Shown here piece by piece: positions 35,771 to 48,791 of a DNA stretch of 64,000 nucleotides. This DNA comes from an uncultured bacterium (GTDB lineage Bacteria > Desulfobacterota > Desulfobaccia > Desulfobaccales > 0-14-0-80-60-11): assembly GCA_937943575.1 (NCBI GenBank), contig CALEAV010000001.1:20375-84374 (forward strand), given 5' to 3'. Position 1 is the first letter of the stretch. Each line of letters begins with the position of its first letter. Position numbers and translations under genes: made by a program. Below the pieces are notes generated by a model. The model was not told where the DNA came from. It saw only the letters and a program-made list of their open reading frames with translations, and ran no database searches.

Positions 35771-35846
35771 GGGGATGTAGCTCAGCTGGAAGAGCGCCTG
35801 CTTCGCATGCAGGAGGTCAGGGGTTCAAATCCCCTCATCTCCACCA
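35771..35846 (+). tRNA. tRNA-Ala (anticodon CGC)
   Basis: GGGGATGTAGCTCAGCTGGAAGAGCGCCTGCTTCGCATGCAGGAGGTCAGGGGTTCAAATCCCCTCATCTCCACCA. The cloverleaf folds by hand: acceptor GGGGATG/CATCTCC including the G3:U70 Ala identity pair, anticodon loop TTCGCAT, T-loop TTCAAAT. CCA is encoded. Confidence 0.9.
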
Positions 35847-35866
35847 CCCCCGTCAAAAGCCAGGAA

Positions 35867-35897
35867 GGCCGCCCGTTGCATGGTCGCGGCTTTTTTT
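35867..35897 (+). terminator. rho-independent terminator after tRNA-Ala
   Basis: Stem GGCCGC (35867-35872) pairs with GCGGCT (35886-35891), followed by a T7 run at 35891-35897. Confidence 0.6.
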
Positions 35898-37087
35898 GCG
35901 CCCGGGCTGATGGAGGGTCGGGTCCGGCATCTGGGACCCGCCCTTCCGGCACACTTTCCTCAGCCTTTCCCCAGGCCCGGCGTCTGCCAGGGGCTCAGGA
36001 CCGAGCACCCGGGGCGCCGCCCATCCCCTCATTCCCCCCGGACGGGCGGCCTGCTGCCGGGAGGGGGGTGCCCGTTTCCTCGCCCCAGCCCACGCGCCGC
36101 CCCCATCCCCTTCCAGGAAGCCGGCCCGGCGCTGAATCCAATGACCGAAATTGCCCAAAAGCGGCCCGGGCAACCTGAGTTCAAAAATCGGCAGGAGGTG
36201 CAGGAGCGGAAAACGGTGGCGCTCTTAACAAGGACACCGGCAACCGGCAGGGGCGGGCCGCAAAAAGCCGACGAACTCAGCCCCTGGCCGGCCGGGGCCA
36301 AGCAGCTCGCCCCAGACTATATGACGCCTCACCAAAATGCGCTATACTCTCTTCCGTGAGTTGACCCATGGAAAAGGGCTGAGAGTGCGGCGCGTGGTGA
36401 CGCCAGGCAGGAAGAAACCTTGACTATGTGGTCCGGGGCGGGCACTTCCGGGCCACGGCAGGCACGAAGGGCCCGGGTCATTCCGGCCTCGGCCCGGGGT
36501 CCGGTTTTGCCGGTAGTGGTTCGCCTAGGCGGCCCAAGCCGTCACCATTCCTCCCAGTGGCGCTTCCCCTTTCCGGCGGCGCGGCTGCCGGGCCTTCGGC
36601 CCCGTCCCCGGGCTGGCCGTGGCCGGGACCGGGATACACCTCAGGACGCCCCGGCTTCCCCCCACCATCCCCATCACCCCGACCTTCCCAAACCCCTGAA
36701 TGTCATCCCAGGGAACCTGACGGGGCCCAGAGGCCGGCAAGCCACCGCCTGGGGAGTCAAAGGCTGCCGGCTGACAATTTCTTTGGCGCCCACCCCCGCC
36801 TCCTGTCCCAGCCAGATGGAGATTCGCGCACCTGTCGTCATCACCAGCCGGGACAGAAGCCGCAGCGGCATCCGGCCTAGCAGATTCCGCCCTGCATTCC
36901 GGCAGGCACCGGGAGCCTCCCCGCCTCCTGAACCTCCCCTGTGCCGGCAAACCACTGGCTGCTTCGGCCATATTGTTTGCCAATCACAACACCGACCCGG
37001 ATGGCTGAAAAAAAAATTGTTTTCAGAAAATTGGATGCAAGACAGAAATAATTCAGAAGAGCAACTCTCTGGTTAAAGAGGAATAAT

Positions 37088-39010
37088 ATGTATTTTATCC
37101 GAGCGTTTATTTTTTTCACTATTTTGTTCTGTGGCCGGACGGGGATTGCCTGGGGTCTGACCCCGGGGCATAATTATGTGGTCATTCTCCTGGATGCCTC
37201 CGGCAGCATGAAGCAATCCGATCCTCAATTTTTGCGCCGCAAGGCCGCCAGGCTTCTCATCAGTCTGCTGCGCTCGGGGGATCGGGTGGTCCTGGCGGAA
37301 TTTGGCACAGGCGTCAGGGGGATCCCCCAGGGAGCCGTAACCCTGACCCCCGAGACCCAGGCAGATCTCTTTGCGGCCCTCGATAAACTCTCCTCTGCAG
37401 ATAAACACACCGACATCCTGGGCGCCTGCCACCATGCCCTTGAGCTGATCAGAGCGCTGCCTCCCGAGGCCCGCCAGTCCTTTGCCCCCCATGTCATCCT
37501 CCTGACGGACGGCAAGGATGATATGCCGGGGCAGGGTGATCGAAGTCCCCTCATCGAGGCAACAATTCACGAGCTGGCCGCTTTGGGAGTGAAGGTCCAC
37601 ACCGTGGGCTTTTCCGGCACGGCGGATATGAAAATCCTAAAGAAGGCCGCCACCCTGACCGGGGGGGACTTATGGGTGATTCATCAGGCCGGTGACCTGT
37701 TGCGGGGCTTTTTCGGGCTTTCCCGGGTCATGGGGAACCGCTGGCCTCTTCTGGAGCAGTCCATGGACCGGGGGACGGCCAGGATTGCCCTGCCTGCATG
37801 GTCCCGCCGAGTGGTGGTCTGCTACCTCCCCTCAGGCCCCACCTCCGAACGGGCACGAGCTTCCGCCCCCATAACCCGGGAAATCATCACCCCCGCCTAT
37901 CAGATCCTGACATTTGATGATCTTCCCTCAAATTCCCTGGAACTCGCCCTTCCCGCCCCCGGGACCCTTTTGGTGGATGCAGAGGAGACCCTGATCCTCC
38001 AGGCCCTGACGGGGAAGAAGGTCCCGAGGCGCCTGCCTTTCCCTTTTCAGGCCCACCTCACCCCGGCCCGGGGTGGTGAACTGGGCCGCCCCCTCTTTCT
38101 GGCCCACAGCGTCCTGACGCTGAGGCTGCGTCAGGACGGCCAGCCGGAGATGGTCCTGCCCCTTTATGATGACGGCCAGCATGAGGACGGCCGGGCGGGG
38201 GACGGCAGATTCGGCGGCTTTGTGCCGGGGATAGGGGAGGGCCGCTGGCACTTTCTCCTCACCGCCCGGACGCCCCACTGCCCGACCCTGTCGGCGTCGG
38301 GACAGGTGGAGGCCCTGGCGAGGCCCGTGTCCGTGGAAGCCCCGGGGCTATTTTCCCAGTTCATCCGGGCGCCTCTGACCGGGAGGCTCCACTGGAAAAT
38401 TCTCAATCTCACCGACATTGCTTTGACCGGGGAACTCGTCCTCGTATATGATAGCCGGGAGAAATTCTCCCAGACTGCAACCTGGAGGGGCGGTGAATCC
38501 CAAGATATTAGCCTCGTTTTGCCAGGTGAGATGAAGGCCGGTGCAGTCGGACGGGCGATTTTGCGGCTGTCTTGGCAGGGAGAACCGGTATGGGAAGGGG
38601 AATTCCGTGTCTGGCCCTGGTGGCTGCCGATTGTGGCCATCCTCGGTGTCCTTGGCCTGGGTGGTCTTACTTTCATCTTTCCCCGCCGTTCCCCTCAGGG
38701 CCTGCCCCTCACCGTCACGGTGGAGGAGCCTGGGCAGAATATCGTCCGGGTTCTGCGGGTGAAGCGCGACGGACGCGTGGAGGCCTCTGACCTGCCTCAC
38801 CCCTTCAATGAGCCGGGCACCTTCCGGGCCCGCTCCGGGATGTGGGGTCGTGGTATCCTCTATGAACCGGCGCCCTGGTGCCAGCCACATTTTCCTGGGA
38901 GGAGGCCTCCCCGCAAGGGGCGTGGTTTTCTCCTGCACGGCCCGACCACTTGGAGGTGTGCTTCGGGAGACATCCAGGCAGAATACAGGTTGAGTCCCCG
39001 TAGTTCATAA
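37088..39010 (+). CDS. exported von Willebrand factor A (vWA/MIDAS) protein with a single C-proximal TM anchor and a roughly 110-aa cytoplasmic tail
   Basis: AGAGGA lies before ATG 37088. Signal-like N-terminus MYFIRAFIFFTILFCGRTGIAWG. vWA beta1-MIDAS VVILLDASGSM (DASGS at 37193-37207), then VILLTDGKDD and VKVHTVGFSG. TM WPWWLPIVAILGVLGLGGLTFIF at about 38612-38683. Confidence 0.85.
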   Translation: MYFIRAFIFFTILFCGRTGIAWGLTPGHNYVVILLDASGSMKQSDPQFLRRKAARLLISLLRSGDRVVLAEFGTGVRGIPQGAVTLTPETQADLFAALDKLSSADKHTDILGACHHALELIRALPPEARQSFAPHVILLTDGKDDMPGQGDRSPLIEATIHELAALGVKVHTVGFSGTADMKILKKAATLTGGDLWVIHQAGDLLRGFFGLSRVMGNRWPLLEQSMDRGTARIALPAWSRRVVVCYLPSGPTSERARASAPITREIITPAYQILTFDDLPSNSLELALPAPGTLLVDAEETLILQALTGKKVPRRLPFPFQAHLTPARGGELGRPLFLAHSVLTLRLRQDGQPEMVLPLYDDGQHEDGRAGDGRFGGFVPGIGEGRWHFLLTARTPHCPTLSASGQVEALARPVSVEAPGLFSQFIRAPLTGRLHWKILNLTDIALTGELVLVYDSREKFSQTATWRGGESQDISLVLPGEMKAGAVGRAILRLSWQGEPVWEGEFRVWPWWLPIVAILGVLGLGGLTFIFPRRSPQGLPLTVTVEEPGQNIVRVLRVKRDGRVEASDLPHPFNEPGTFRARSGMWGRGILYEPAPWCQPHFPGRRPPRKGRGFLLHGPTTWRCASGDIQAEYRLSPRSS

Positions 39011-39037
39011 TCCTGGATTTTCAGGAGGGCAGTCCCC

Positions 39038-41821
39038 ATGAAGGAGTATTTAACCACACCCACCTTTGTCATCGGTTTGGGGGGTATCGGTCAGAAAGTC
39101 ACCTTCCTTCTGGCGGAGCGGTTTGAGAATTCCCGCTGGCGGGTGGTCCCCCCCACCATCCGCATCCGGTCCTTCGACACCGCGATGATGGAATCCTATA
39201 AGCGTGATGACGTTGAGATTCCGGTGTCCAAATTTCGGCGTTTCACCCGCCTGGGCCAATTCGATGGAGACCAGGTCATTCAGCACCTGCATGTCTATCC
39301 GGAAATCCAGGATTGGTGGGATTATCAATACACCATCGGCTTTATAGGGGAAGGGGCGAAGTCAGAACGTCCCGTGGGGCGCCTGGTGTTTTTCCGCAAC
39401 CTCGATCAAATCCATCAGGTGCTGCTGGATGATTTCAAAGCGCCCTTGGCCGATGATCTCCAGACGCAATTGATTAAGGTAGGGTTGGGACAGGTGAGTC
39501 GTCACCCCCTCGTCTATATCGTCGGGTCCCTGGCCGGGGGGACCTGCTCCGGCATGCTGATAGACATGGCCATTCTGGTGCGCTGGCTGCTCGTCAAGTT
39601 GGGGTATGAAAGCGGCAGCATCAACATCACCGCTCTGCTGGGTCTGGAGTCAGTGATCAACGTGGCGACGCAAAGTGGCAACGACCAGATTGCCAGACGG
39701 CGTCGTCTCAATGTGAACGCCGCCTTGCGGGAAATCGACTTTCTCCAGGGAGGACAGGAAAATTTCACCATAAATTATCCCCAGCCCCTCTCGCGCATTG
39801 AGCCGGTCCGTCCCCTATTCAATCAAGTTTATTTATTTACCTCCCGCAGAATGGGGGGATTTTTTTACCAAAATCAGTGGGACATCCTCAGTCGGGTCGC
39901 CCACTTCATCTTTGGCCAGATCGCCTCCAAAACCGGGCAGGAGGCGCGGGCCATCATGGATAATGTGGGGAGCTATTTCAATCCCAATGAAAGTACCGTC
40001 AGCGGCGGCCTCAAGGCCATCTATGCCTCCTTTGGGGTGGAGTGGCTGGAAGTTCCCAAAAAAAATCTCCTGGCAGCCTGGTGCCAGAAGCATGCCGATC
40101 TGTTGGGGAACCTGGCAGTGGAAATCGACTGGACGAGGGAACCCAAGGAAAACCTCCTGCGCAAATTTAAGGAACTCATTCCTCCCAAGCTGCATGGCTA
40201 TCGCCAGTCGCTGGCGATCTTGGAATCAGGCCCCCAGGGGATCTTGGCCGCTCCAGGGATGGGTGCTCTGGCCCCCAAACTGGAGGCCATTCAGGGAGCG
40301 CAGAACAAAACGCAGCTGATGGCTGCCCTCCACGATTTTGAGAGTGAGCTGCCCCCGCTGCTGACAAAAATCCTCCGGCGAGAAGTGGCCCTGGCCGGGG
40401 ACCCCTCCTTTGAGGATGCCTGGCTGCTGGAGGCCATACAAACCCTCTGCCGGGATCGAGGCTTCCGCCTGGGGGGAGCCAGAAGGGTTCTGCAAGAAGC
40501 GGCCCGCTACATCCGAAGCCTGACCAGTGTGTCCGAGCTGTCCCTCTCTTCTGTGAAAGAAGTCGTCAGACAATCTACAGGCTTTTTTGGAAGAGTGAGA
40601 GACCCCGGGCCGGCGTTGGAATGGGCCAAGGCCAAGACATTCCAGACCGCCAGACAGATTCTCCGCAATGAGATGGGGCTACGTTTTGATGCCCTGGCCA
40701 CCAAGATGGAGGAATGCGCCAACGGCCTGCAGCGCCTGCAGGAGAAGATCCGGGACCTCACCCGGCACATGCGCACCTTGCAAGCAACCGGGGATACCAT
40801 CCCCCCGGAAACCTACCTTCTGAACCCCAACGATATGCAAACCATGCTGGATGAGGCTCCGGAGGAAGTGGCCCGGCTGGGGGCCGATGAGATCGCCGAG
40901 CGGGTGGCCGGGGAGCTCACTTTGACCTTGTTGAGAGCCCAGGACACGGGGTTTTTGGAGAATAATCTCCGCTACTGGATAGAATCCGCCCTGGAAAAGG
41001 CCATCGAAACCCGAATACAACCGCCCAGAGACAGAGTGAAGCGCATTTGTCACCGCATGACCCAATGTGAGCCTATGTGCTATTTTATCGATAGAGGCCC
41101 TGAATTTAACGAAATCATGAGAAATCATCATCCTACAGATCTCAAGATTGTCCTCACCGGTGGGGACAATCAGGATCAGGATGACTTGAGAAAATGGGCC
41201 TTAGAGGAAAATCAAAAAGGGAAAGGAAATACCTACCAGATATTTGCCAATGACGAATTTCTGCGGGATGATATTTTGTATATTACCTGCGGCTGGCCTT
41301 TATGGCTGGTGGATGAGGTGCGTTCGGGGGAAACTCTGCTGGAGCAGACGAAGAAAGATGATATTAAGCGTTACCATAATTCCTTTATTTTGGGGAGGCA
41401 GATTCCGGCCAGCCGGGAGCACCAGATCAGGCCCCTGGAGGAGAGCGACGCCCAGACGTGGTTCGGCATTGCGCTGGCCCTGCGGGATATTGACTTCGGG
41501 GTGGGGGAAATCCATTTTAAGCCAGCGCCTTTCCCGGGCCTGATTCCCATTGAGGCGCCGGCTCTGGGGGACTGCCTGGAAAAAGCCTACCAGCTTTTTC
41601 GTCAGCAGGGCTTGGCCCATGCCTACAAAACCTATGTTCGCCGCGAACTGGAGAGGGACAGGGGTCTCTTCAAAAGCCGCTTAGAGGAGGGGCTGGCCCA
41701 CCGGGAGGCAGCCCTGCTGGGAGCCTTCGAGGGCGGCCAGATAACCGCCGATGAGAAGAAGAGACTGTCCACCTTTTATCGCCTTGCCCGGGAATATGCC
41801 AGGAGGATTGTGATCCTATGA
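39038..41821 (+). CDS. giant tubulin/FtsZ-superfamily GTPase-like protein (Tubulin_2 / FtsZl1-like), 927 aa
   Basis: AGGAGG lies 9 nt before ATG 39038. T1-like FVIGLGGIGQKV (39074-39097), T3-like IGEGAKSERPVGR (39347-39382), T4 / tubulin-signature-like VGSLAGGTCSGM (39533-39553), all in the canonical order. The long helical C-terminal two-thirds has no motif I recognise. Confidence 0.7.
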   Translation: MKEYLTTPTFVIGLGGIGQKVTFLLAERFENSRWRVVPPTIRIRSFDTAMMESYKRDDVEIPVSKFRRFTRLGQFDGDQVIQHLHVYPEIQDWWDYQYTIGFIGEGAKSERPVGRLVFFRNLDQIHQVLLDDFKAPLADDLQTQLIKVGLGQVSRHPLVYIVGSLAGGTCSGMLIDMAILVRWLLVKLGYESGSINITALLGLESVINVATQSGNDQIARRRRLNVNAALREIDFLQGGQENFTINYPQPLSRIEPVRPLFNQVYLFTSRRMGGFFYQNQWDILSRVAHFIFGQIASKTGQEARAIMDNVGSYFNPNESTVSGGLKAIYASFGVEWLEVPKKNLLAAWCQKHADLLGNLAVEIDWTREPKENLLRKFKELIPPKLHGYRQSLAILESGPQGILAAPGMGALAPKLEAIQGAQNKTQLMAALHDFESELPPLLTKILRREVALAGDPSFEDAWLLEAIQTLCRDRGFRLGGARRVLQEAARYIRSLTSVSELSLSSVKEVVRQSTGFFGRVRDPGPALEWAKAKTFQTARQILRNEMGLRFDALATKMEECANGLQRLQEKIRDLTRHMRTLQATGDTIPPETYLLNPNDMQTMLDEAPEEVARLGADEIAERVAGELTLTLLRAQDTGFLENNLRYWIESALEKAIETRIQPPRDRVKRICHRMTQCEPMCYFIDRGPEFNEIMRNHHPTDLKIVLTGGDNQDQDDLRKWALEENQKGKGNTYQIFANDEFLRDDILYITCGWPLWLVDEVRSGETLLEQTKKDDIKRYHNSFILGRQIPASREHQIRPLEESDAQTWFGIALALRDIDFGVGEIHFKPAPFPGLIPIEAPALGDCLEKAYQLFRQQGLAHAYKTYVRRELERDRGLFKSRLEEGLAHREAALLGAFEGGQITADEKKRLSTFYRLAREYARRIVIL

Positions 41822-43335
41822 ACCTCAGGGTTCTACCGGGAATTGTCTGGGCCCTCGATGAACCGGCATATAATTATGTGAAGAATTGGTTGGTCACCCT
41901 GCCCCCAAATGCCAGTGGGGTCTTTGCCGCGGCCTCCAGCTGGAACGAGTTCATTGAGATCATTGACCATTATCGGAAACAGGAGTTCGATGAAACGCTG
42001 CTTCAGGCCGGTCTCAGTCTGGAGCCCCAACTGCAGGGGCGGCGGGTCAATGTAGTGGTAGTGGGCTCCCTCCCCGCTGAGGGCCGGACTGCCTGGGCCG
42101 AGGCAGAAGAAAAATTGCATTCCCTGAGCGGGGTTATCTCCCTGGAGCATTACCGGGTGCTCCTGCATCCTACCCTGCCCCCTATCGGGGCCGCTTCGGT
42201 GCAGAGAGATGTGGTTTTTTCCGGTCTTGACACCCTGCGGGTGCTCCCCTGGCTCCTCACCCGGGTGGTCAGCGGGGGCTTCACCTTGGGGGAGGGGGAA
42301 TTTTCCCACCACTTCTCCCAGCTTCTGGACGTCTTGTTGTTGGCGGAAAGAGACGGGGGAAGGGCCCCGGGATATCTAGTGCACTCTTTCTTTCAGTCCC
42401 AACCCCAGCCTCGTCATGTCCGGTTGGCGGGGTTTCCCCGGCTTTCTCTGGGGCACCTGCTCACAGAGATGGCAGCCTTTTTGGCTCAGGCCATGTTGCA
42501 GCGTGCCTATCAGCGGCCCTATGAGGAGACCCGGCCTGCCATTCAGGCATTGGAAAAGCAGCTGGCAGGGCTGGTGGGGGAGTTTCTGAGAGGGGAGCGA
42601 ACCGCCACGCAGGTGGAGGATCACTTTTTCAGGTTGCGTGCGTTTCCAAATCTGTCGACCTCGGCGATCTTGCGTGAGGTTCCGGAAATCCTGCACCGGC
42701 AGACCCTCCGCCTCCGCCAGGACGCAATCATGATTGCTCCACCCGACTCATGGTGGACCAGACTGTGGCGAAGAATTCTGGCCTTTTTCGGCCGGAATCA
42801 GCCTGCGGACAGGGACCTGCCGGACCGGGTCCAGAGGGATTACCTGGTCAAGAGGTTTACCCGCACCATTGAAGTGATCAAGGAAGTAACCTCGGAGGTG
42901 CAAGCGGAGCCCAACACAGTCTCCCTACCCGATGATTTCATCAAGGATTGGGCAGATGAGATAAATGTTTTCGTCCGACGGGGCCTCCAAGAAGGGTGGG
43001 GACGAAGTGAGCTCAAAAACCACTTGAAAATAAAGATGGAGCGCTACCTCCAGGAGAATTTTTTCCATGCCCTTCTCCACTGGGATCTTAAGGATGAGCG
43101 CGTGCGGGAGGTGGCCAGGGCGTTGGACGAGGGAAACCTCCTGCGCTTCAGTGCCCCTTTGATCGGGGGGCTCACGGTCTCCCCGCAGGCCGTGGTCACC
43201 TCCCTCAATTTGGGGGAGCAGATCCCTTATCAGACACACAAAGTTCCCTGCGCCACCTTGTCCTTTTACCCGGGCTGGCGGCCATTGTTGGTGGGTGCCA
43301 GCGAAGCTGTCCCCTTGGAACACATCAGTTTATAA
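41818..43335 (+). CDS. hypothetical protein, translationally coupled; possibly a nucleotide-loop-degenerate paralogue of the tubulin-like protein
   Basis: ATGA overlap with the upstream stop. IVWALDEPAYNYV and RRVNVVVVGSLPAEGRTAW align by eye with the FVIGLGGIGQKVT and LVYIVGSLAGGTCSGM loops of the upstream protein, but the glycines are lost. No P-loop. Confidence 0.6.
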   Translation: MNLRVLPGIVWALDEPAYNYVKNWLVTLPPNASGVFAAASSWNEFIEIIDHYRKQEFDETLLQAGLSLEPQLQGRRVNVVVVGSLPAEGRTAWAEAEEKLHSLSGVISLEHYRVLLHPTLPPIGAASVQRDVVFSGLDTLRVLPWLLTRVVSGGFTLGEGEFSHHFSQLLDVLLLAERDGGRAPGYLVHSFFQSQPQPRHVRLAGFPRLSLGHLLTEMAAFLAQAMLQRAYQRPYEETRPAIQALEKQLAGLVGEFLRGERTATQVEDHFFRLRAFPNLSTSAILREVPEILHRQTLRLRQDAIMIAPPDSWWTRLWRRILAFFGRNQPADRDLPDRVQRDYLVKRFTRTIEVIKEVTSEVQAEPNTVSLPDDFIKDWADEINVFVRRGLQEGWGRSELKNHLKIKMERYLQENFFHALLHWDLKDERVREVARALDEGNLLRFSAPLIGGLTVSPQAVVTSLNLGEQIPYQTHKVPCATLSFYPGWRPLLVGASEAVPLEHISL

Positions 43336-43354
43336 AGCCCGGAGGCCTCTGTTC

Positions 43355-45169
43355 ATGCTCCCCGTTGACATCGGCATATCAGATAAAAATATTTATGTTT
43401 TCGTCATTATTATATTGGCGGTTTTCATTTTATTTATATACAATACAATAGAAATTCGGCATTTATTGAAACAGAGAAAAATATGGGAAAGACTAGGTCC
43501 AAATGCAGGCGAACTTACTCTGGATCACATTCACGGGATTCCGGAACCCAGTAATTTTGTTCTGGGCAGTATTTTGACGGACAGCCCGGGCAAAGCAAAA
43601 GTGCAGGGCATTCCGGCCGCCCTGGACCATTTGGGGGCGGCACTGGACGCGCCTTTGCGTGCCCTTCGCTCCCTGAGCTATCTATCCGTCCTCTTCGGTT
43701 TATTGGGAACAGTGCTGGTTTTGGCTATAACATTTTGGGGAGTCCAGGATATCCGTCATATTAATCCCGGTCTGCTTGGCCATATATATTTAGTCAATTC
43801 GGTGGCCGTCTTTCTTGCATTATGCTTTTATGGATTATATACCCATTACCGCCGTTCAGCTGACCGACTCCTCCTTGCCGCCTCCCGGACCCTGGGGCGG
43901 CTGCAGTCGGAAGTGCCTGAAGGGGTCGATCCCCAGCTGGTGGCGGCCCTGGAAGGCGTGGGCAGCAAGTTCAGCCAATGGGGGGAGGACATCTACGCCA
44001 GGCATAGACAGGAGTCCGAAAGACTGGTCCAGGAAATGCAGGGATTGGGGGAGGCCATCCGGCAGATGGTCCAAAGCATGGTAGCCGCCCAGAGGACCGA
44101 AATGGAGGGCATCATCCCGTTGCTCAGGAGTCAGGATGAAAAAATAGAGTTGCTGAGCCTACGGCTGGATGAACGGTTTCAGGACCTGGCCAGACCCTTA
44201 CTGCAGGCTCTGCCCATCCTGGAGTCCTGGCGCCAACGCACCGAGGAGCTGAAGCAGGCAGTGGAGGACATGCGCCGGGCCGACCTGGAGGGCAAAACCG
44301 CCGCCCTGGCTCAGGCCGCCTCGGCTCTGGGCACCGCCTCCTCCGAGTTGCCCCAAGCGGCCCGGGAGGAGTTCCGGGGCGCCAGAAAGGAGCTTGCCGC
44401 CGGTCTCGGCCAGGCCTTGCGCCAAGGCCTGAATGACTTCCTGGTGCCGACCCTTCAAGCCCTCCATGCCCGGTTGGCCGAACTGGAAAAGCTACAGCAG
44501 GCCCTGGGGGAAGCAGTAAACGATCTGCCCTCCAAGGCGGCCATGAGCCTGGCCGAGACCACCAGGACCGTCTGGCAGGAAACCATGCAGCCGGGGCTCG
44601 CTTTTCTGGCCGAGTCCTTGAGCACCCTCAGGGAATTCCAGCAGGCCCTCCGCCACATTCTGGACCAACTGCCCCAGTCCGTCGGCCAGGGGGTGGCCGC
44701 CGGCTGCCAGCCGCTTTTGCAGATGAATGGCGAATTGGCCTCTCAGCTGAGGGGATTCGTTGAAAGGACGACCCCGTTAACCCAGCTTCCCGATATCTTG
44801 GCGGAGAGCGTCCAGGAAAGCCTGCGCGGGGCAGCCACAAGCCTCTCATCGGCAGTATCCCGGGCCCTTCGCCAGGAATGGCAGCAGGTTTGGGCGCCGG
44901 AGGCGGAAATCACCCATTTCCTGCGGTCCCTGCTGGAGGAACAGCAGAACCAGGTGAAGGAACTGGACAGACTGACCGGCCGGCTGGTCTCCTTCATGGA
45001 AAATCAGGTCAACGGCATAGGGGAGAGAGTGGCACAGAGTCTGCGGACCCTCTGGGCGGAAACGGGCGACGGATACCTGCGGGATATTCTGGGATCCCTC
45101 AAGGGTCTGGAAAAGGCGATGGCAAACACCCGGGGCCCCGCGGATGGCAGCTCTGGGTGGTACTGGTAA
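43355..45169 (+). CDS. MotA/ExbB/TolQ-like three-TM channel protein with a roughly 400-aa C-terminal helical (coiled-coil-like) tail (ZorA-like architecture)
   Basis: GGAGG lies 9 nt before ATG 43355. TM1 is about 43391-43450, followed by a roughly 75-aa loop. TM2 LSYLSVLFGLLGTVLVLAITFW has GLLGTV at 43697-43714 (MotA_ExbB hallmark), then a short loop and TM3 IYLVNSVAVFLALCFYGLYTHY. The A/L/E/Q/R-rich tail runs to the stop. Confidence 0.6.
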   Translation: MLPVDIGISDKNIYVFVIIILAVFILFIYNTIEIRHLLKQRKIWERLGPNAGELTLDHIHGIPEPSNFVLGSILTDSPGKAKVQGIPAALDHLGAALDAPLRALRSLSYLSVLFGLLGTVLVLAITFWGVQDIRHINPGLLGHIYLVNSVAVFLALCFYGLYTHYRRSADRLLLAASRTLGRLQSEVPEGVDPQLVAALEGVGSKFSQWGEDIYARHRQESERLVQEMQGLGEAIRQMVQSMVAAQRTEMEGIIPLLRSQDEKIELLSLRLDERFQDLARPLLQALPILESWRQRTEELKQAVEDMRRADLEGKTAALAQAASALGTASSELPQAAREEFRGARKELAAGLGQALRQGLNDFLVPTLQALHARLAELEKLQQALGEAVNDLPSKAAMSLAETTRTVWQETMQPGLAFLAESLSTLREFQQALRHILDQLPQSVGQGVAAGCQPLLQMNGELASQLRGFVERTTPLTQLPDILAESVQESLRGAATSLSSAVSRALRQEWQQVWAPEAEITHFLRSLLEEQQNQVKELDRLTGRLVSFMENQVNGIGERVAQSLRTLWAETGDGYLRDILGSLKGLEKAMANTRGPADGSSGWYW

Positions 45170-45180
45170 AGAAATAAAAG

Positions 45181-45939
45181 ATGCGGTGGCGCAGAAGAGA
45201 TGAAGGAGAGAATCCGGCCTGGCCGGGTCTGGTGGATCTGTTTGCCTTCACCCTGGTTTTCGTTTTGCTTCTGTGGTTTGGCAGCGATCTGAAGGGCGAA
45301 AAAGAAAAAATAAACGAAAAAATAAAGAAATTAGAAGAAGATAACTCGCACCTCAAAGTGGAAAAAGATCAATTGGAAAAGGAATTCGGCAAACTCAAAG
45401 ATATCATCGGAGGGAAAGGATTAAAGGAACTTAAAAATATTTATGAAATCATTAAAGTCAAACTGCCAATGGATTATAGAATAGTGATGGATGAGGAGGC
45501 CATCGAGATCCAGATAAAAGGTGACCCCCCCATTTATTTCAAAACCGGGGATTACCAGTTAAGCAAACAGGACCAGGAGCGTTTAAGATCCCTGGCCCCC
45601 ATCATCCTGGACACAGTTCAGGGGAAGCCGCTTTATGTTCTCATCAATGGGACGGCGGACCCCAGATTTCTGCCGGACCGGGGTTTCCCTCCCCACAACA
45701 ATGTTGAACTGTCCGCCCTGCGTTCGGCCACCGTGGCCGACACCCTGGAAAAGGCCGCCCTTGGGCTGGGCAAATATCTGCGGATTGTGGGCTTGGGGGT
45801 TATCGGGGAAGAAGCCCCTCCGGGGGTGGACCCGGAGCCGCATTACCAGCAGTATCGCACCATCAACCTGGTCATCAAAGTGGATGTGGAAAAATTGCGC
45901 TTTCTGCCGGCTCTGGAATTAAAACAGCCAGGTCATTGA
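45181..45939 (+). CDS. MotB/ZorB-like protein: N-terminal TM with conserved Asp, coiled-coil linker, OmpA-like peptidoglycan-binding domain
   Basis: WPGLVDLFAFTLVFVLLLWF (Asp codon 45235-45237) resembles the MotB/TolR/ExbD plug-TM. A K/E-rich linker follows. OmpA_C-like YFKTGDYQLS...VLINGTADP...NNVELSALRSATVADTL...IVGLGVIGEE...YRTINLVI at about 45525-45885. Confidence 0.75.
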   Translation: MRWRRRDEGENPAWPGLVDLFAFTLVFVLLLWFGSDLKGEKEKINEKIKKLEEDNSHLKVEKDQLEKEFGKLKDIIGGKGLKELKNIYEIIKVKLPMDYRIVMDEEAIEIQIKGDPPIYFKTGDYQLSKQDQERLRSLAPIILDTVQGKPLYVLINGTADPRFLPDRGFPPHNNVELSALRSATVADTLEKAALGLGKYLRIVGLGVIGEEAPPGVDPEPHYQQYRTINLVIKVDVEKLRFLPALELKQPGH

Positions 45940-46763
45940 TGAGAAGCCTGGTCAAAAGCCTCCAGACCTCCGTTCTGCGCCTCAAGGAATGGTGGTCCAG
46001 TCTGGCTTCGGGGGGGAGATTGTTCCCAGACCGGCGGACCTTGCACAGGGATTCTCGGGAGTGGCAGGAGCGGGTGAGGGAGTTGGTCAACAGCCGGCAA
46101 GCCCTGGAGGACAGATTGGCCGAGGCCAGTATGGCGGCTCGGGCAGCCGGGGTGCCGCAGCCGGAAGAGGTTGGCCTCCTGAAGCAGGCGAAACATGAAA
46201 TTCAAAAATCCTATGACCGGACCCTCATCCAAAAGTACCAGGCGATCAGTCAGGCCTTCGCTATCCTCAGTCCGGGAAAAAAAGGGAGCCCTCCGGAGTC
46301 ACTTCAAAATCTGATAAAGGAATATACTTTCCGCATTCAACAAATAATACAGGATTACGAAATAATCAGCAACAGGCTTCAGCTTGTCATTAACCTTCTC
46401 CATCAATCTCTGCAGCAAAAGCCTTGGGCAACTGCATTATCACACCGGTTGCTCTTGGGTCATCCTGAAATATATCAGGAGTTGCTAAAGATAGAGGAAT
46501 TACGATGGGAAAATAGGCAAATCGCTGTAAAGAGAATGCAAAACAGCTTCCAAAGGCGACTGCATATCGGAAAAATGTGGTTAAATATCTTGGAAAACCA
46601 TATAAGTAGTTATGCTTACCGCCTAGGAATGAGGACCATAAAAGAATTAAGCACAAGTTTCTCAGAACATGAAGATAAGCTAAATTATCTTATAAATCTT
46701 CACAGACGCTTGGATACTCCCCTTCTGAATTGGAACAGACAGTCGCTTCAACGGCTAAATTAA
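45939..46763 (+). CDS. hypothetical alpha-helical protein (last gene of the operon)
   Basis: ATG 45939 overlaps the upstream TGA (TGATG). 274 aa with no TM or recognisable motif. The 3' half is AT-rich (26/60 G+C at 46441-46500). Confidence 0.6.
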   Translation: MRSLVKSLQTSVLRLKEWWSSLASGGRLFPDRRTLHRDSREWQERVRELVNSRQALEDRLAEASMAARAAGVPQPEEVGLLKQAKHEIQKSYDRTLIQKYQAISQAFAILSPGKKGSPPESLQNLIKEYTFRIQQIIQDYEIISNRLQLVINLLHQSLQQKPWATALSHRLLLGHPEIYQELLKIEELRWENRQIAVKRMQNSFQRRLHIGKMWLNILENHISSYAYRLGMRTIKELSTSFSEHEDKLNYLINLHRRLDTPLLNWNRQSLQRLN

Positions 46764-47092
46764 GGGCACCGCACCCCTTATCCTCCCCCAGCAATTGATC
46801 CCCATCCTCGGGGGGGGACCTGCATCCGCGTCAGGCAGCGAGCCGGCCCTGGCCTTGGAGCACCGCCCCTGAGCCGAACTGCCGCCGAACCAGCCGGCCA
46901 CGCCGGGAAAAATCTGTTCCCACTGTCCCGGGGGCTTTCGCCGCTTTTCCCGATTCAGGTTGAAGTCGTCGGTGGTATCAGTGACGTTGAGGAGCTCAAT
47001 ATCACCAATGCTACTATGTTGCACGACTGCCACAAAAGCAACTTGGCATGACTTCTGTTGATTTGCCTCTACGCACGTCGAATCCGGGGGCC

Positions 47093-47117
47093 GCAGGTTC
47101 GAATCCTGCCAGGCGCC
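47093..47117 (+). other. orphan tRNA-like 3' fragment (T-arm plus acceptor 3' strand)
   Basis: GCAGG-TTCGAAT-CCTGC is followed by CAGGCGCC. No complementary 5' acceptor (GCGCCTG) lies within 100 nt upstream, so it is not a complete tRNA. It differs from the tRNA-Ala 3' end. Confidence 0.4.
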
Positions 47118-48791
47118 GAGGATTTCAACCGGTTGCCCACCGGGCCCCTACACCGCAAAAATCGGGGGTCAGCATTGTGCAGGGCCACCGCAGGCCCCCC
47201 GGGGCAGCCTGAAATGAGCCTCACCTGAACCTCAGCGTGCCGGGCCGTCTTCTGCAAGCCCCCAGGGTCTCCCCACCCCCTGGGCGCTCCGTGGGAGGAG
47301 CCCGGAAGCGACAAAGATGGCGGGACGCGTTTGCCAGCCCTCCCGCCGTCGCCTCTCAGCTTCACAGACCCGGCCTCACCCCCGCCGACACCCCCAAAAG
47401 CCACAGACTTACGGAGGGCTGCATCTCCCCCCACCGCCCTTCCGTAACCCGGCCGCAGCGGCGTCTCCCCGGATTCCCCCGTCACCCCCGACTGGACCAG
47501 CTGCGGGGGCGGAATTTCTGCCTATTCCTTTGTCGAAAGATTCCAGTTTCTCTGATTTTTTCCCTGTTTCCTTTCGTCCGGCATCGGTTCTCCCTAAGGC
47601 TCGCAGCCCACGTCCGCCTTCCTTCCCCGGGGAAGCCCACGCGGGAACGTGTTGAAAAACCCAGGATATTTTATTCCAGCCGCGCCATCAGATTGCGTGG
47701 GCCATGATTCATCGCCGGATCGAGGGCCTCATTCCAAAGGATGCAGCCTTCCGGGTGGCTGCCCTAAGACCCCTGGGGAAGAGCCTGTTAAGCCACGGAT
47801 GGAGCCACGCCCCCGCTGTGTCCCCCTTCCCGGCCAAAGCGCCCCCGTTCTTTCCAGAGGTGCCATGGCTTCTTCCGGCATGCCCCCCCGTCGATCCCCC
47901 TCACCTTGGCTCCCCCTTTTCAGCACGCCACCGGTGCCCCAAGGGGGGCCGGGAGCCTCAGGTCATTTCGCCCCGCCAGGAGAGACTGAAAGGCGGGGAG
48001 ACAGGACCCTTATGACAGGACGGGAGACTGCTGCCATGGGTTCCCTGCCGATTGCTCTCCTCAAGAGATCGGCCGGATCTTTTCGGAACATTTTTCAATT
48101 TTTTCCCGGAAGCGATTCTTCTGTTTTTGTAGTTAACTGTTGTCATTTAATGAATCAGGCTGAAGGGAAATTCGACCGCAATCTCTTTAAAGTGAATGGC
48201 AGTTTATCACGGACTGTTTCCATCCCGGGTCAATTTATCCTGCGGCCGGCCTGGGCCATTCTTCCCGGGGCCTTCCCATCGCCGACCTGATCACGGTTTG
48301 GGCTGCGGCGGTCTGACCCCGGCCGCCGGAAAAGGCGCCTCCTCTCCCTCTGAGTCCTCCGGCCCGGCGGGGTGCCCAAAGAATTCGGGAGCGTCAGGAG
48401 ACGACGTGGAGAAGGTCTGCCGGCATTTGCTCTCCAAATTGACCGCCCCGAAAGGGTGCCGGCGGGGGGCGGCATGTCGCCCCCGGATGCTCCTGCATGA
48501 AGGGGGCACAGGAGCCGCGGCGCCCCACCCTCCCCGGGGATCATCAAGGTGGGAAATATTGCGTACTCAAAAATGGTAATTTTTGCCTATATACAAGCTG
48601 CCCCACATATCTCATGTTTAAGCTAAAGCTGCCATGACCGGGGGGACCGGCAGCCGGCGGCAGATGAGGAGGCTGGACCCTGCGGCCGCCTCGTCGGATG
48701 AGCGTTACGAGCCTGGGCCCTGAGGATCATCCGGGCCAGCCACCCCGGGGCGGAGCTTTCAGGCGTCCGGTCCGGAGACAAGGAGGACCCC

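Follow-up and report, generated by a model that had tools for sequence, protein, structure and literature searches.

What function is served by a low-GC operon that combines an exported vWA protein, a tubulin-family GTPase and a pair of proteins resembling an ion-driven stator unit? Such an operon was analysed in a 64,000-nt stretch of CALEAV010000001.1, hereafter called the window, whose coordinates are used throughout.

Organization of the operon

Reading of the ORFs places six co-directional, tightly packed genes, A to F, on the + strand at 37088-46763. The operon and the features ahead of it are as follows.

35771..35846, + strand: tRNA-Ala(CGC), 1.2 kb upstream of the island (ARAGORN; Rfam tRNA, 71 bits)
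36990..37087, + strand: AT-rich leader before A, with a GAGGA box 8 nt ahead of the ATG (sequence reading)
37088-39010, + strand: A, predicted exported vWA protein, 640 aa (Pfam VWA, E 8e-13; NCBIfam choice_anch_X, E 4e-9)
39038-41821, + strand: B, FtsZl1/Tubulin_2 GTPase, 927 aa (Pfam Tubulin_2, E 7e-38)
41818-43335, + strand: C, soluble, system-specific protein, 505 aa (ATGA start overlapping the stop of B)
43355-45169, + strand: D, putative A-subunit type of a 5:2-type ion-driven motor, 604 aa (MotA/ExbB-fold evidence)
45181-45939, + strand: E, putative B-subunit type (MotB/ZorB-like), 252 aa (PDB profile and PADLOC matches)
45939-46763, + strand: F, soluble protein of no recognisable family, 274 aa (no family match)

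The spacers between successive genes are 27, -4, 19, 11 and -1 nt; these values, as well as the ORFs and their coordinates, reproduce those of an earlier sequence-only reading of the window. That reading had placed ribosome-binding-type boxes before three ORFs, and they are found before four (GAGGA before A, AGGAGG before B and before C, and GGAGG before D). The motifs that it had named (the MIDAS, the tubulin-type loops, GLLGTV and GLVDLFAF) were all found, and their conservation across the orthologues of A, B, D and E is far beyond chance. The AT-rich leader is presumably the promoter and ribosome-binding region of A, and promoter prediction called no strong consensus promoter exactly at 36990..37087.

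The GC content of the operon is 0.569, against 0.69 in the rest of the window, and the drop starts at about 37000. The GC3 values of the operon genes (0.55-0.71) are likewise lower than those of the flanking genes (0.86-0.91), which are housekeeping genes. The tRNA-Ala(CGC) is possibly a former integration site and is given as context, with no membership of the system implied. The low GC content, the adjoining tRNA and a patchy taxonomic distribution indicate that the operon was horizontally acquired.

The vWA protein and the tubulin-family GTPase

A begins with a hydrophobic signal or anchor (residues 3-21 in a hydropathy scan), followed by a vWA domain carrying the MIDAS DASGS (residues 31-190) and by a beta-rich region with a choice-of-anchor-X motif, LYDDGxHxD...DGxFGG (residues 357-393). 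A membrane helix spans residues ~508-537, of which hydropathy flags 508-533 and the end at ~537 comes from sequence reading; the predicted topology leaves a conserved tail of ~100 aa in the cytoplasm. The Pfam VWA score (49 bits, cutoff 24) agrees with the earlier assignment. In an alignment of eight orthologues, D36, G39 and S40 of the MIDAS are invariant, as are G562, G584, F602, W622 and Y633 of the tail. These features suggest that A displays a metal-dependent vWA domain outside the cytoplasmic membrane while its conserved tail reaches the cytoplasm.

B comprises a GTPase domain (residues 11-351), a long, mostly helical middle and a conserved C-terminal region, in which C677, P679, D744, G752, W753, P754 and E760 are invariant. 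Its Pfam Tubulin_2 score (131 bits, cutoff 27) places it in the tubulin superfamily, as had been proposed, and Tubulin_2 matches all 19 aligned orthologues, four of which also match the canonical Tubulin family (PF00091) weakly. The T1 (GLGGIGQK) and T4 (AGGTCSG) loops are invariant or nearly so across orthologues, with S164, A166, G167, G168, T169 and G172 invariant. A sequence search found no solved relative. The sequence thus identifies B as an FtsZl1 tubulin-like protein with intact predicted GTP-binding loops. FtsZl1 proteins have no recognisable T6-H7/T7 or C-terminal polymerisation elements, and they may not polymerise canonically; therefore, assembly of B is a conjecture, and its earlier description as a GTP-dependent filament former was an assumption.

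A stator-like pair and two soluble partners

D has three hydrophobic membrane segments (residues 4-38, 104-133 and 138-162, from hydropathy). Between the first and second helix, ~70 aa form a cytoplasmic insert, and beyond the membrane domain a helical tail of ~430 aa extends in the cytoplasm; a start at the GTG further upstream, at 43295, would lengthen the protein to 624 aa. Helix 2 carries GLLGTV (T119) and helix 3 carries YxVN (N148); G115, L116 and T119 are invariant in the orthologues, and the tail varies in length, giving total lengths of 443-654 aa. A Pfam MotA_ExbB match had been expected, and it is indeed the commonest match to the orthologue N-termini (12 of 15, best E 2e-4), though a weak one that stays below the gathering score. 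In the AlphaFold2 model, the N-terminal domain has a pLDDT of 72-85 and the tail below 60. When the modelled membrane domain was compared with the PDB by Foldseek, 48 of the top 50 matches, including the first 48, were TolQ, ExbB, MotA or PomA chains, all of a single superfamily, with probabilities of 0.66-1.00, target-normalised TM-scores of 0.31-0.50 and marginal E-values (0.07-1).

In E, a single membrane helix at the N-terminus is joined through a coiled-coil linker to an OmpA-type peptidoglycan-binding domain at the C-terminus, which bears the motif NGTADP...N-ELSALRA-V. The PDB profile matches of E are MotS (4e-11), PomB (2e-8) and, over the N-terminal 120 residues, ZorB (8qyd_F, 2e-5), and it matches the PADLOC ZorB1 model at 8.7e-7. 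D19 in the membrane helix (GLVDLFAF) is invariant across orthologues and aligns with Asp26 of EcZorB, where the D26N mutation gives a dead motor (PMC11946911). These results indicate that D and E carry the sequence, motif and predicted-fold hallmarks of a proton-driven 5:2 stator unit, in accordance with the earlier view of a MotA/ExbB-type and MotB-type pair in which D has a long helical tail like that of ZorA. The label "ZorAB-like" holds for the architecture, a tailed D with an Asp-bearing E, but not for membership: neither D nor E passes the curated models for Zorya families (NCBIfam ZorA_3, 11 bits against a cutoff of 250; ZorB1, 22 bits against 400), and D matches no PADLOC ZorA model. 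The pair is therefore Zorya-like in architecture only.

C combines a flavodoxin-like alpha/beta domain at the N-terminus with a helical domain behind it (AlphaFold2 mean pLDDT 67), and it has no match in Pfam, NCBIfam or PADLOC. It had been regarded as a degenerate paralogue of B; no relationship is detectable, the hhalign probability being 0.2-0.3% and the Foldseek matches only generic flavodoxin-like alpha/beta folds. F also has no match in Pfam, PADLOC or NCBIfam. The sixth position is occupied by a gene in nearly all loci, and its sequence evolves fast: homologues of F lie there in L095 (36% identity, E 5e-53) and L090 (35%) and, more faintly, in L006 (24%, E 5e-13) and L086 (weak), and in L089 the gene at this position encodes a fusion with an FGE-sulfatase domain. 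C and the sixth-gene product are putative soluble partners specific to this system.

Recurrence and defence-gene neighbourhood

The order B-C-D-E is maintained in 14 other loci, in one of which the contig ends within C, and across the 15 loci including the window B has diverged to 30-52% identity. When HMMs made from the initial loci were run on five loci obtained subsequently, they detected all four genes in that order, at E 1e-28 or better. The genes thus recur together in other genomes and form one conserved unit, as the sequence-only reading had held. A sits ahead of B in every locus but L090, where the vWA gene is missing, and is therefore perhaps dispensable. The system as a whole is rare, with only 43 clusters of C among 1.84 billion representative proteins, and its taxonomic spread is patchy (Acidobacteriota, Eisenbacteria, Proteobacteria and unclassified metagenome bins).

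The majority of loci adjoin known defence genes, as judged from ~13 informative loci, and this context has arisen independently more than once; the flanks of the window and of L090 are housekeeping genes. The Luteitalea locus adjoins Azaca ZacB and ZacC (E 8e-157 and 0), and BREX PglZ and BrxL lie beside L088 (PADLOC, E 1e-214 and 2.5e-273) and L091 (Pfam). Type III restriction-modification accompanies L005 and L007, the latter together with an RmrA/CapP-like gene. The neighbours of L008 are a Mokosh-like helicase and a Cas4-like nuclease, those of L093 a Lamassu-like gene for an LmuB-like ATPase and a PDC-S37/Hhe helicase, and those of L095 a ParE toxin-antitoxin pair, a methyltransferase and a transposase. 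A secreted SNase adjoins the system in four orthologous loci and a beta-CASP nuclease in one; the earlier statement that no nuclease is encoded is correct for the window but not for these loci. No PADLOC model matches A, B or C.

Because the operon in other bacteria usually lies among anti-phage systems, it is probably a rare immune system. Defence, one of several roles listed earlier, is the best supported of them, and is inferred from the gene neighbourhood.

Proposed function and alternatives

We judge the chances about even that the operon encodes a rare and mobile module of anti-phage defence, in which two arms span the envelope and a tubulin-family core lies in the cytoplasm. When a phage adsorbs or injects its DNA, the envelope would be disturbed, upon which E would bind peptidoglycan and ion flow would open, as proposed for Zorya, turning D together with its tail. 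The motor signal, combined with or gated by a ligand on the vWA domain of A, would then reach B and C at the inner membrane face, as in Zorya the ZorA tail passes the motor signal to cytosolic effectors (PMC11946911). The output might be GTP-dependent assembly or conformational switching of B, which could act locally at the entry site, by blocking or sequestering the incoming genome or by remodelling the membrane, or could call in accessory effectors that differ between loci, for example the secreted SNase or the beta-CASP nuclease encoded beside some orthologues. Modules of tubulin with an extracellular vWA have independently been predicted as conflict systems (PMC7159879).

Such a conflict system, of the type described by Kaur, Burroughs, Iyer and Aravind, offers an unlikely alternative: once NTP-dependent assembly passed a threshold, the cell would kill itself, with the tubulin-like protein as the oligomerising switch and the D/E channel as the killing effector, acting by uncontrolled ion leak and membrane depolarisation (abortive infection) rather than as a rotary sensor. 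No other effector is encoded within the window. ZorAB itself is said to have been proposed originally, by Doron and colleagues in 2018 and before structures were solved, to depolarise the membrane. The tubulin and extracellular-vWA modules are predicted in Firmicutes and Actinobacteria (PMC7159879), but their defining GAP1-type GTPase is missing here (Pfam, NCBIfam). Moreover, a conserved peptidoglycan-binding domain and a long tail of variable length are better suited to a regulated stator and signal transmitter than to a simple pore, and type I Zorya acts directly, not abortively (PMC11946911).

It is rather improbable that the operon is a housekeeping or stress machine for membrane remodelling or vesicle formation, in which the inner membrane would take its shape from the tubulin-like protein, held to the envelope by the vWA and OmpA/MotB-like proteins. 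Remodelling is the published prediction of Makarova and Koonin for FtsZl1 operons, and it agrees with the membrane-associated or membrane-proximal nature of all components, the housekeeping flanks in the window and L090, and the lack of a classical effector gene in the window. However, rarity, patchiness, low GC and the mobile-element and defence-island neighbours of most loci are not the pattern of a conserved cell-biological function and point to anti-phage defence, and a fast-evolving sixth gene with varying accessory genes is typical of conflict systems. Very unlikely, in our view, is a motor-driven trans-envelope force transducer or adhesion/gliding device, in which the D/E stator pulls A and B is a cytoplasmic scaffold, after the models of ExbBD pulling TonB or of Agl-Glt with its vWA adhesin CglB and cytoskeletal track. 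Inner-membrane-tethered vWA proteins beside TolQR-like motors have recently been proposed to act so (PMC12204202), in Myxococcus gliding a TolQR-like motor works with a vWA adhesin and a cytoskeleton (PMC9946355), and the modelled membrane domain of D is structurally nearest TolQ and ExbB. Yet the predicted topology of A is opposite, with a C-terminal membrane helix and neither an SHLS/His motor-binding motif nor a channel Asp helix; the B-subunit role is already filled by E, L090 has no A, no outer-membrane partner or Glt-like genes are present, and the defence-island context is left unexplained.

Comparison with known systems

We found no paper that tests the operon experimentally or connects the tubulin-vWA-stator set to Zorya. 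The TolQR/ExbBD-coupled vWA force transducers (PMC12204202) share an inner-membrane-tethered vWA protein encoded beside a 5:2 motor. There the vWA protein carries, at its N-terminus, a helix bearing an SHLS/His motif, or else a TolR-like Asp helix that takes the place of the B-subunit, whereas A has a C-terminal membrane helix without those features and a separate B-subunit, E, is present. The GAP1-N2 GTPase-centred systems (Kaur et al. 2020, PMC7159879) likewise combine a tubulin-family protein that has a coiled coil at its C-terminus with a membrane protein whose vWA domain is extracellular, and they too are predicted to act in biological conflict. They differ in the GAP1-type GTPase, FNIII-repeat proteins and HSP70, which are absent from the present operon, and have no MotA/MotB-type pair, "MotA" being absent from that paper.

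Zorya likewise pairs an A-subunit, whose three membrane helices are accompanied by a very long helical tail in the cytoplasm, with a B-subunit bearing a membrane Asp and a peptidoglycan-binding domain, and it too is located in defence islands; the E N-terminus aligns with EcZorB, and the D tail matches ZorA tails weakly. In contrast, the D membrane domain is nearest TolQ/ExbB, with ZorA not among the top 50 Foldseek matches, the operon has no homologue of ZorC, D, E, F or G, and its soluble partners are the tubulin-like GTPase, C and F, together with a vWA membrane protein.

That FtsZl1 genes are linked to vWA and OmpA-family ones, as the sequence-only reading had stated, is correct: the link was drawn computationally by Makarova and Koonin in 2010 (PMC2875224), so that the tubulin-vWA-OmpA association was already catalogued then, including a Deinococcus MotA/TolQ/ExbB neighbour. 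That study took the OmpA-family genes as beta-barrel porin-like and proposed membrane remodelling, recognising neither the stator unit nor the defence context. As in other FtsZl1 operons, B is a clear FtsZl1/Tubulin_2 (PF13809) member, a vWA gene with an intact MIDAS lies directly upstream, and an OmpA-family gene is in the operon; a vWA gene is nearby in 70 of 89 sampled Tubulin_2 loci. The present subtype has a fixed set of its own: C, D with three helices and a tail, E of ZorB-like type and the sixth gene. In 74 other sampled FtsZl1 loci none of these was detectable. The GTPase and protein-kinase genes that are frequent in other FtsZl1 operons are absent from it.

The Deinococcus operon (DR_0540-DR_0534; Deide_2p00760-00810), for which the supplementary table of PMC2875224 lists MotA/TolQ/ExbB and OmpA genes after the FtsZl1 gene, lacks a vWA gene as well as homologues of C and F, an LRV-repeat protein and a Ser/Thr kinase being encoded instead, and its FtsZl1 is distant from B (E 3e-10 to the B HMM). 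What it shares is an FtsZl1 tubulin accompanied by a MotA-like and an OmpA/MotB-like protein. The MotA-like one, encoded directly after the tubulin and ahead of the OmpA/MotB-like one, is 411 aa long and its helical tail is apolipoprotein-like; it matches the D N-terminal HMM at E 1e-4 (hhalign E 9e-4, 34% identity over helices 2-3). This second pairing of a tubulin with a tailed MotA-like and an OmpA/MotB-like protein argues that tubulin and motor work together.

The six-gene operon and its surroundings

The operon comprises six ORFs on the + strand, located exactly where the sequence-only reading had placed them.

Genes of the operon (window coordinates, strand, product)
37088-39010, + strand, gene A, 640 aa ORF, vWA protein
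39038-41821, + strand, gene B, 927 aa ORF, FtsZl1/Tubulin_2 protein
41818-43335, + strand, gene C, 505 aa ORF
43355-45169, + strand, gene D, 604 aa ORF, proposed A-subunit of a stator
45181-45939, + strand, gene E, 252 aa ORF, proposed B-subunit of a stator
45939-46763, + strand, gene F, 274 aa ORF

The intergenic spacers from A to F are 27, -4, 19, 11 and -1 nt, with gene E starting 11 nt 3' of gene D, and Shine-Dalgarno-like boxes (GAGGA, AGGAGG, AGGAGG and GGAGG) precede A, B, C and D in turn; the spacers agree with that earlier reading. The GC content of the operon block is 0.569 versus 0.69 in the remaining window, and third-position GC is 0.55-0.71 in the operon versus 0.86-0.91 in its cdsA-like and multicopper-oxidase neighbours. 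A tRNA-Ala(CGC) gene lies 1.2 kb 5' of the operon, the window flanks carry housekeeping genes (RuvB, ABC transporter, TatA, CdsA, nitroreductase and multicopper oxidase), and contigs from other samples encode identical proteins. These results indicate that the operon is real and intact, and that a high-GC bacterial host probably acquired it horizontally. A 16S rRNA gene of bacterial type begins at 63241 and runs off the window end, its 5' 737 model positions extending to 64000.

The stretches bordering the operon (35847-37087, 1.2 kb upstream, and 46764-48791, ~2 kb downstream) hold only unsupported ORFs from gene callers and no convincing gene, and no Rfam family was found in either. At window 47078-47118, a fragment resembles the 3' half of a tRNA, with the T-arm GCAGGTTCGAATCCTGC and an acceptor strand, for which ARAGORN makes no call. 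The fragment occurs once in the window and is unlike the 3' end of the tRNA-Ala, so the idea that copies of this tRNA end delimit the island was rejected; the fragment may be an integration-site relic at the far island edge. Neither an att repeat around the island nor an integrase was found in the window.

The tubulin-family protein B and the exported vWA protein A

Protein B matched Pfam Tubulin_2 (PF13809) over residues 11-351 with 131.2 bits (cutoff 27, E 7e-38), and the same family was matched by all 19 aligned B orthologues, 4 of which also touch canonical Tubulin. The nucleotide-binding loops were judged against the patterns GxGGxG for T1 and GGGTG[ST]G-like for T4. Across the 19 sequences, G13, G15, G16 and G18 of the T1 loop GLGGIGQK are nearly invariant, and S164, A166, G167, G168, T169 and G172 of the T4 loop SLAGGTCSG are invariant. 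These results uphold the placement of the 927-aa protein in the tubulin/FtsZ superfamily. The B profile found no relative in the PDB. PF13809 has been equated with FtsZl1 (PMC9871819), in which the T6-H7/T7 and C-terminal polymerisation elements are not recognisable (Makarova and Koonin, 2010, PMC2875224), and for this reason we do not assume that B forms filaments.

Protein A matched Pfam VWA (PF00092) with 49.4 bits (cutoff 23.8). D36, G39 and S40 of its MIDAS motif, D36-A-S-G-S40, are invariant among 8 orthologues, as expected from the vWA domain with DASGS that had been read from the sequence, and a choice-of-anchor-X motif is also present. By hydropathy, A begins with a signal-like segment and has a single C-terminal membrane helix (residues ~508-537, WWLPIVAILGVLGLGGLTFIF), which contains no His and no Asp; the ~100-residue stretch past this helix holds residues invariant in the 8 orthologues. 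On the basis of the hydropathy and the conserved residues, A is a single-pass protein that exposes its vWA domain on the outer side of the membrane and keeps a conserved tail on the cytoplasmic side. A differs from the motor-coupled vWA force transducers (PMC12204202) in having neither an N-terminal helix with an SHLS/His motor-binding motif nor a TolR-like Asp helix.

Proteins D and E as a proposed stator pair

Protein D has three hydrophobic helices and invariant residues G115, L116, T119, Y145 and N148. Of these, G115, L116 and T119 lie in the helix with the GLLGT motif and are invariant in 17 sequences; T119, a putative channel-lining polar residue, is presumably the equivalent of ExbB Thr148. 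In the AlphaFold2 model, residues 10-180 are confident (pLDDT 72-85), and the ~430-residue tail (residues ~170-604) is almost wholly helical at low confidence. Among the top 50 Foldseek PDB matches to this model, 48, including the first 48, are TolQ, ExbB, MotA or PomA chains, with probabilities of 0.66-1.00, target-normalised TM-scores of 0.31-0.50 and E-values of only 0.07-1. The earlier MotA/ExbB assignment of D thus stands on the fold matches, the GLLGT motif and the adjacent gene E, although it is not carried by the Pfam model, since D scored 12.7 bits over its full length and 16.6 bits over its N-terminal 198 aa against PF01618 (MotA_ExbB, cutoff 22.9). MotA_ExbB was nevertheless the most frequent weak family match, found for 12 of the 15 D orthologue N-termini (best E 2e-4).

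The profile of the D N-terminal domain gave nothing significant against the PDB, and the full-length profile gave coiled-coil-type matches only, including the ZorA tails 8qyd_A (3e-5) and 8vvn_C (2.5e-5), which constitute weak evidence. The length of D orthologues ranges from 443 to 654 residues, the variation lying mostly in the tail, and the architecture of this tail is that which characterises ZorA.

Protein E has one N-terminal membrane helix (residues 12-38), in which Asp19 is invariant among 9 orthologues and falls on EcZorB Asp26 in a pairwise alignment; the D26N mutation in ZorB kills the Zorya motor (PMC11946911). Its C-terminal domain carries the peptidoglycan-binding signature NGTADP...N-ELSALRA-V. 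Against the PDB, the profile of the 9 orthologues matched MotS (4e-11), PomB (2e-8) and MotB (5e-7) with this C-terminal domain, and E. coli ZorB (2e-5) with the N-terminal 120 residues. The E of the window alone falls under the Pfam OmpA-like cutoff (20.1 versus 27.2 bits), and the orthologues in loci L004, L089 and L091 give unmarked PF00691 hits. The MotB-like character of E, with a membrane Asp and an OmpA-like domain, is therefore borne out by the invariant D19 and the profile matches. On these results we take D and E to be the two subunits of an ion-driven stator of the 5:2 type, and we infer its stoichiometry and rotation.

Proteins C and F

Neither C nor F matched any family in Pfam, NCBIfam or PADLOC. 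C had been read as a degenerate paralogue of B, and this is not supported, since no similarity of sequence profile or fold to tubulin or FtsZ was detectable: BLASTP found no collinear similarity between C and B, two profile-profile comparisons gave probabilities of 0.2% and 0.3%, and the top 50 Foldseek matches to the C model contained no tubulin or FtsZ. In this model (mean pLDDT 67), the N-terminal part forms a flavodoxin-like alpha/beta domain, which matched generic folds only.

A sixth gene, in the position of F, follows E in nearly all loci examined. F evolves fast, with 36% identity in the closest locus and barely detectable similarity elsewhere. In L089 (17054-20712), the sixth gene carries a fused FGE-sulfatase (formylglycine-generating-enzyme-like) domain, and a beta-CASP/metallo-beta-lactamase nuclease is encoded after it; Kaur et al. 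(2020, PMC7159879) discuss domains of the FGE-sulfatase type as components of conflict systems.

Recurrence of the gene set

The search with B found ~38 full-length relatives with 30-74% identity, and 14 further loci were examined (L004-L008, L086-L093 and L095). The gene set, whose recurrence in other genomes the sequence-only reading had named as a check, was found again: the order B-C-D-E is kept in all 14, except that the L008 contig ends inside C, and A lies 5' of B in all examined loci but L090. HMMs built on the first loci and then applied to five later-fetched loci found all four genes, arranged B-C-D-E, in each of the five (E 3e-28 or better), which provides an independent check. In L090 (4955-14167), whose B is 60% identical to that of the window, the vWA gene is missing, and RadA directly precedes B-C-D-E and an F homologue between housekeeping flanks. 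Given this locus, the vWA arm may be dispensable.

A vWA gene lies near Tubulin_2 in 70 of 89 Tubulin_2 loci overall. Homologues of C, D and E were not found, even at E <= 5, in 74 other Tubulin_2 loci, which are mostly cyanobacterial and acidobacterial, and the C-family profile found just 43 clusters among 1.84 billion representative proteins. The system is therefore a rare, distinct subtype of the FtsZl1-vWA theme. Tubulin_2 gave only two distant matches on plasmids and none in phages, and a plasmid- or phage-borne system was rejected on this basis. The proteins most similar to those of the window (48-70% identity) occur in bins labelled as the archaea Candidatus Methanomethylicaceae and Hadarchaeum (P0004/P0074/P0092 of L095; P0085). 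Because the MotB-like subunit has a peptidoglycan-binding domain, an archaeal host is unlikely, and mis-binned bacterial contigs are the likelier source.

Genomic neighbours and possible function

Genes of defence systems, or genes resembling them, lie beside the operon in many of the fetched loci.

Neighbours of the operon in orthologous loci
L004 (Luteitalea sp. TBR-22): Azaca ZacB and ZacC (E 8e-157 and 0), RmuC protein, AAA_5 ATPase, PDDEXK nuclease
L005: type III restriction-modification
L007: type III restriction-modification and RmrA/CapP-like gene
L088, L091: BREX (PglZ, BrxL)
L008: Mokosh-like helicase and Cas4-like nuclease
L093: LmuB-like ATPase and PDC-S37/Hhe helicase
L095: ParE toxin-antitoxin pair, methyltransferase, transposase
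L086, L087, L092: helicases, or SbcCD-like genes

In L004 (1-7828), a complete-looking Azaca system (DUF6361, ZacB and ZacC) and the RmuC-domain protein (585 aa), which has a ZorA3-like coiled-coil match, lie directly upstream of the operon. The B proteins of these loci share only 30-52% identity, which suggests that the adjacency to defence genes arose repeatedly and was not inherited. Four loci also carry a gene with an SNase domain (PF00565).

SNase genes near the operon (locus coordinates)
L005:17663-18463, - strand, secreted or lipoprotein SNase (PF00565)
L087:18242-18637, + strand, secreted or lipoprotein SNase (PF00565)
L088:7175-7783, + strand, secreted or lipoprotein SNase (PF00565)
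L091:7068-7577, - strand, secreted or lipoprotein SNase (PF00565)

Each of the four lies ~2 kb or less from the system, and they are mutually homologous, with up to 66% identity; their product may serve the system as an accessory nuclease in the periplasm. No SNase gene is present in the window, and no degraded copy was found in its 2-kb non-coding tail.

Together, the neighbours point to defence. Purely housekeeping flanks are confined to the window and L090; housekeeping membrane remodelling is one rival explanation, and a TonB- or gliding-like force-transduction device is another. A further rival is abortive infection, with cell killing by the channel. Taking the best explanation and its abortive-infection variant together, we regard anti-phage defence as fairly probable. 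The specific model leading from sensor to tubulin may claim about half of that weight. The analysis shows the domain composition and topology of the products, their conserved catalytic and channel residues, the synteny and the genomic context; the mechanism is drawn by analogy. As in Zorya (PMC11946911), an envelope disturbance would cause E to anchor to peptidoglycan and ion flow to open, upon which D and its tail would turn and pass a signal to the cytoplasmic partners B, C and F. A second route, from the periplasmic ligand-binding domain of A, would run through its cytoplasmic tail. Activated B might then assemble, switch conformation or recruit accessory nucleases.

A bolder form of this model, which we consider unlikely, would constitute a new class of immunity, in which a stator that is proton-driven, anchored to peptidoglycan and equipped with a Zorya-like tail would sense phage attack at the envelope jointly with an extracytoplasmic vWA sensor, and would switch on a tubulin-superfamily GTPase effector. 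The assembled tubulin would itself stop the infection: it might cage the incoming genome or keep it out, or seal or remodel the membrane where the phage enters, and a cytoskeletal protein would serve as an antiviral weapon of the host, not of the phage.

The interest of the system is chiefly that it would tie 5:2 motors, vWA sensing and a tubulin-family protein together in immunity. If the defence reading is true, the Zorya principle of an ion-driven rotary envelope sensor that signals through a long tail would extend to a wholly different output, a tubulin-family GTPase instead of nucleases, and the widespread, functionally blank FtsZl1/Tubulin_2 family would gain its first testable role 15 years after its description. 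The 5:2 motors would then be modular sensors, recruited repeatedly, as the Deinococcus operon joins a different tailed stator to a protein of this tubulin family. If the defence reading is false, the module would still couple proton motive force to a prokaryotic cytoskeletal protein in a way that is as yet unexplored. Luteitalea sp. TBR-22 is cultured and has a complete genome (AP024452.2), in which the operon lies at about 721.5-731.9 kb and adjoins Azaca, making it a tractable organism in which both systems can be studied together.

Comparison with known systems

Features shared with Zorya include the long cytoplasmic helical tail predicted on the A-subunit, here D, and the alignment of E Asp19 with ZorB Asp26. 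True Zorya membership of D and E was rejected on the scores of curated models. D matched no PADLOC ZorA model at E <= 1 and scored 11.3 bits against NCBIfam ZorA_3 (cutoff 250); E matched PADLOC ZorB1 with E 8.7e-7 and scored 21.8 bits against NCBIfam ZorB1 (cutoff 400). The system is therefore not a Zorya subtype by membership. It differs further in that no ZorC/ZorD, ZorE or ZorF/ZorG lies beside D and E in the window, where A, B, C and F are without any PADLOC match.

FtsZl1 was linked to vWA and OmpA-family genes in a publication of 2010 (PMC2875224). In 2020, Kaur et al. (PMC7159879) predicted that modules combining tubulin, extracellular vWA and GAP1 GTPases are conflict systems, and in 2025 a force-transducing role was proposed for vWA proteins that lie next to TolQR-like motors (PMC12204202). 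Unlike the GAP1-N2 tubulin-vWA systems of Kaur et al., the window operon lacks a GAP1-type TRAFAC GTPase and an FNIII component, as no P-loop GTPase or FNIII match was found in the six products with Pfam and NCBIfam. The literature search found no paper that treats Zorya and tubulin as parts of one system, nor any that deals with Deinococcus DR_0536-0538. The gene set, the reading of a Zorya-like tailed stator and the defence-island context are in none of the 2010, 2020 and 2025 papers. Judged by sequence, the system appears to be a variant of a computationally known theme.

A parallel in gene order is found in a distant Deinococcus FtsZl1 operon, in which tailed MotA-like and OmpA/MotB-like genes directly follow the FtsZl1 gene; the supplementary table of 2010 annotates a MotA/TolQ/ExbB gene in Deinococcus operons (PMC2875224). 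In Deinococcus deserti, this second type of FtsZl1 operon (L094; plasmid 2, NC_012529.1:109351-118592) lies on a mobilisable megaplasmid. Its MotA-like protein has 411 aa and a helical tail that is apolipoprotein-like; OmpA and LRV-repeat proteins are encoded as well, and the operon differs from that of the window in having no vWA gene. The same order of FtsZl1, tailed MotA-like and OmpA/MotB-like genes in so distant an operon supports a functional link between the tubulin-family protein and the motor.
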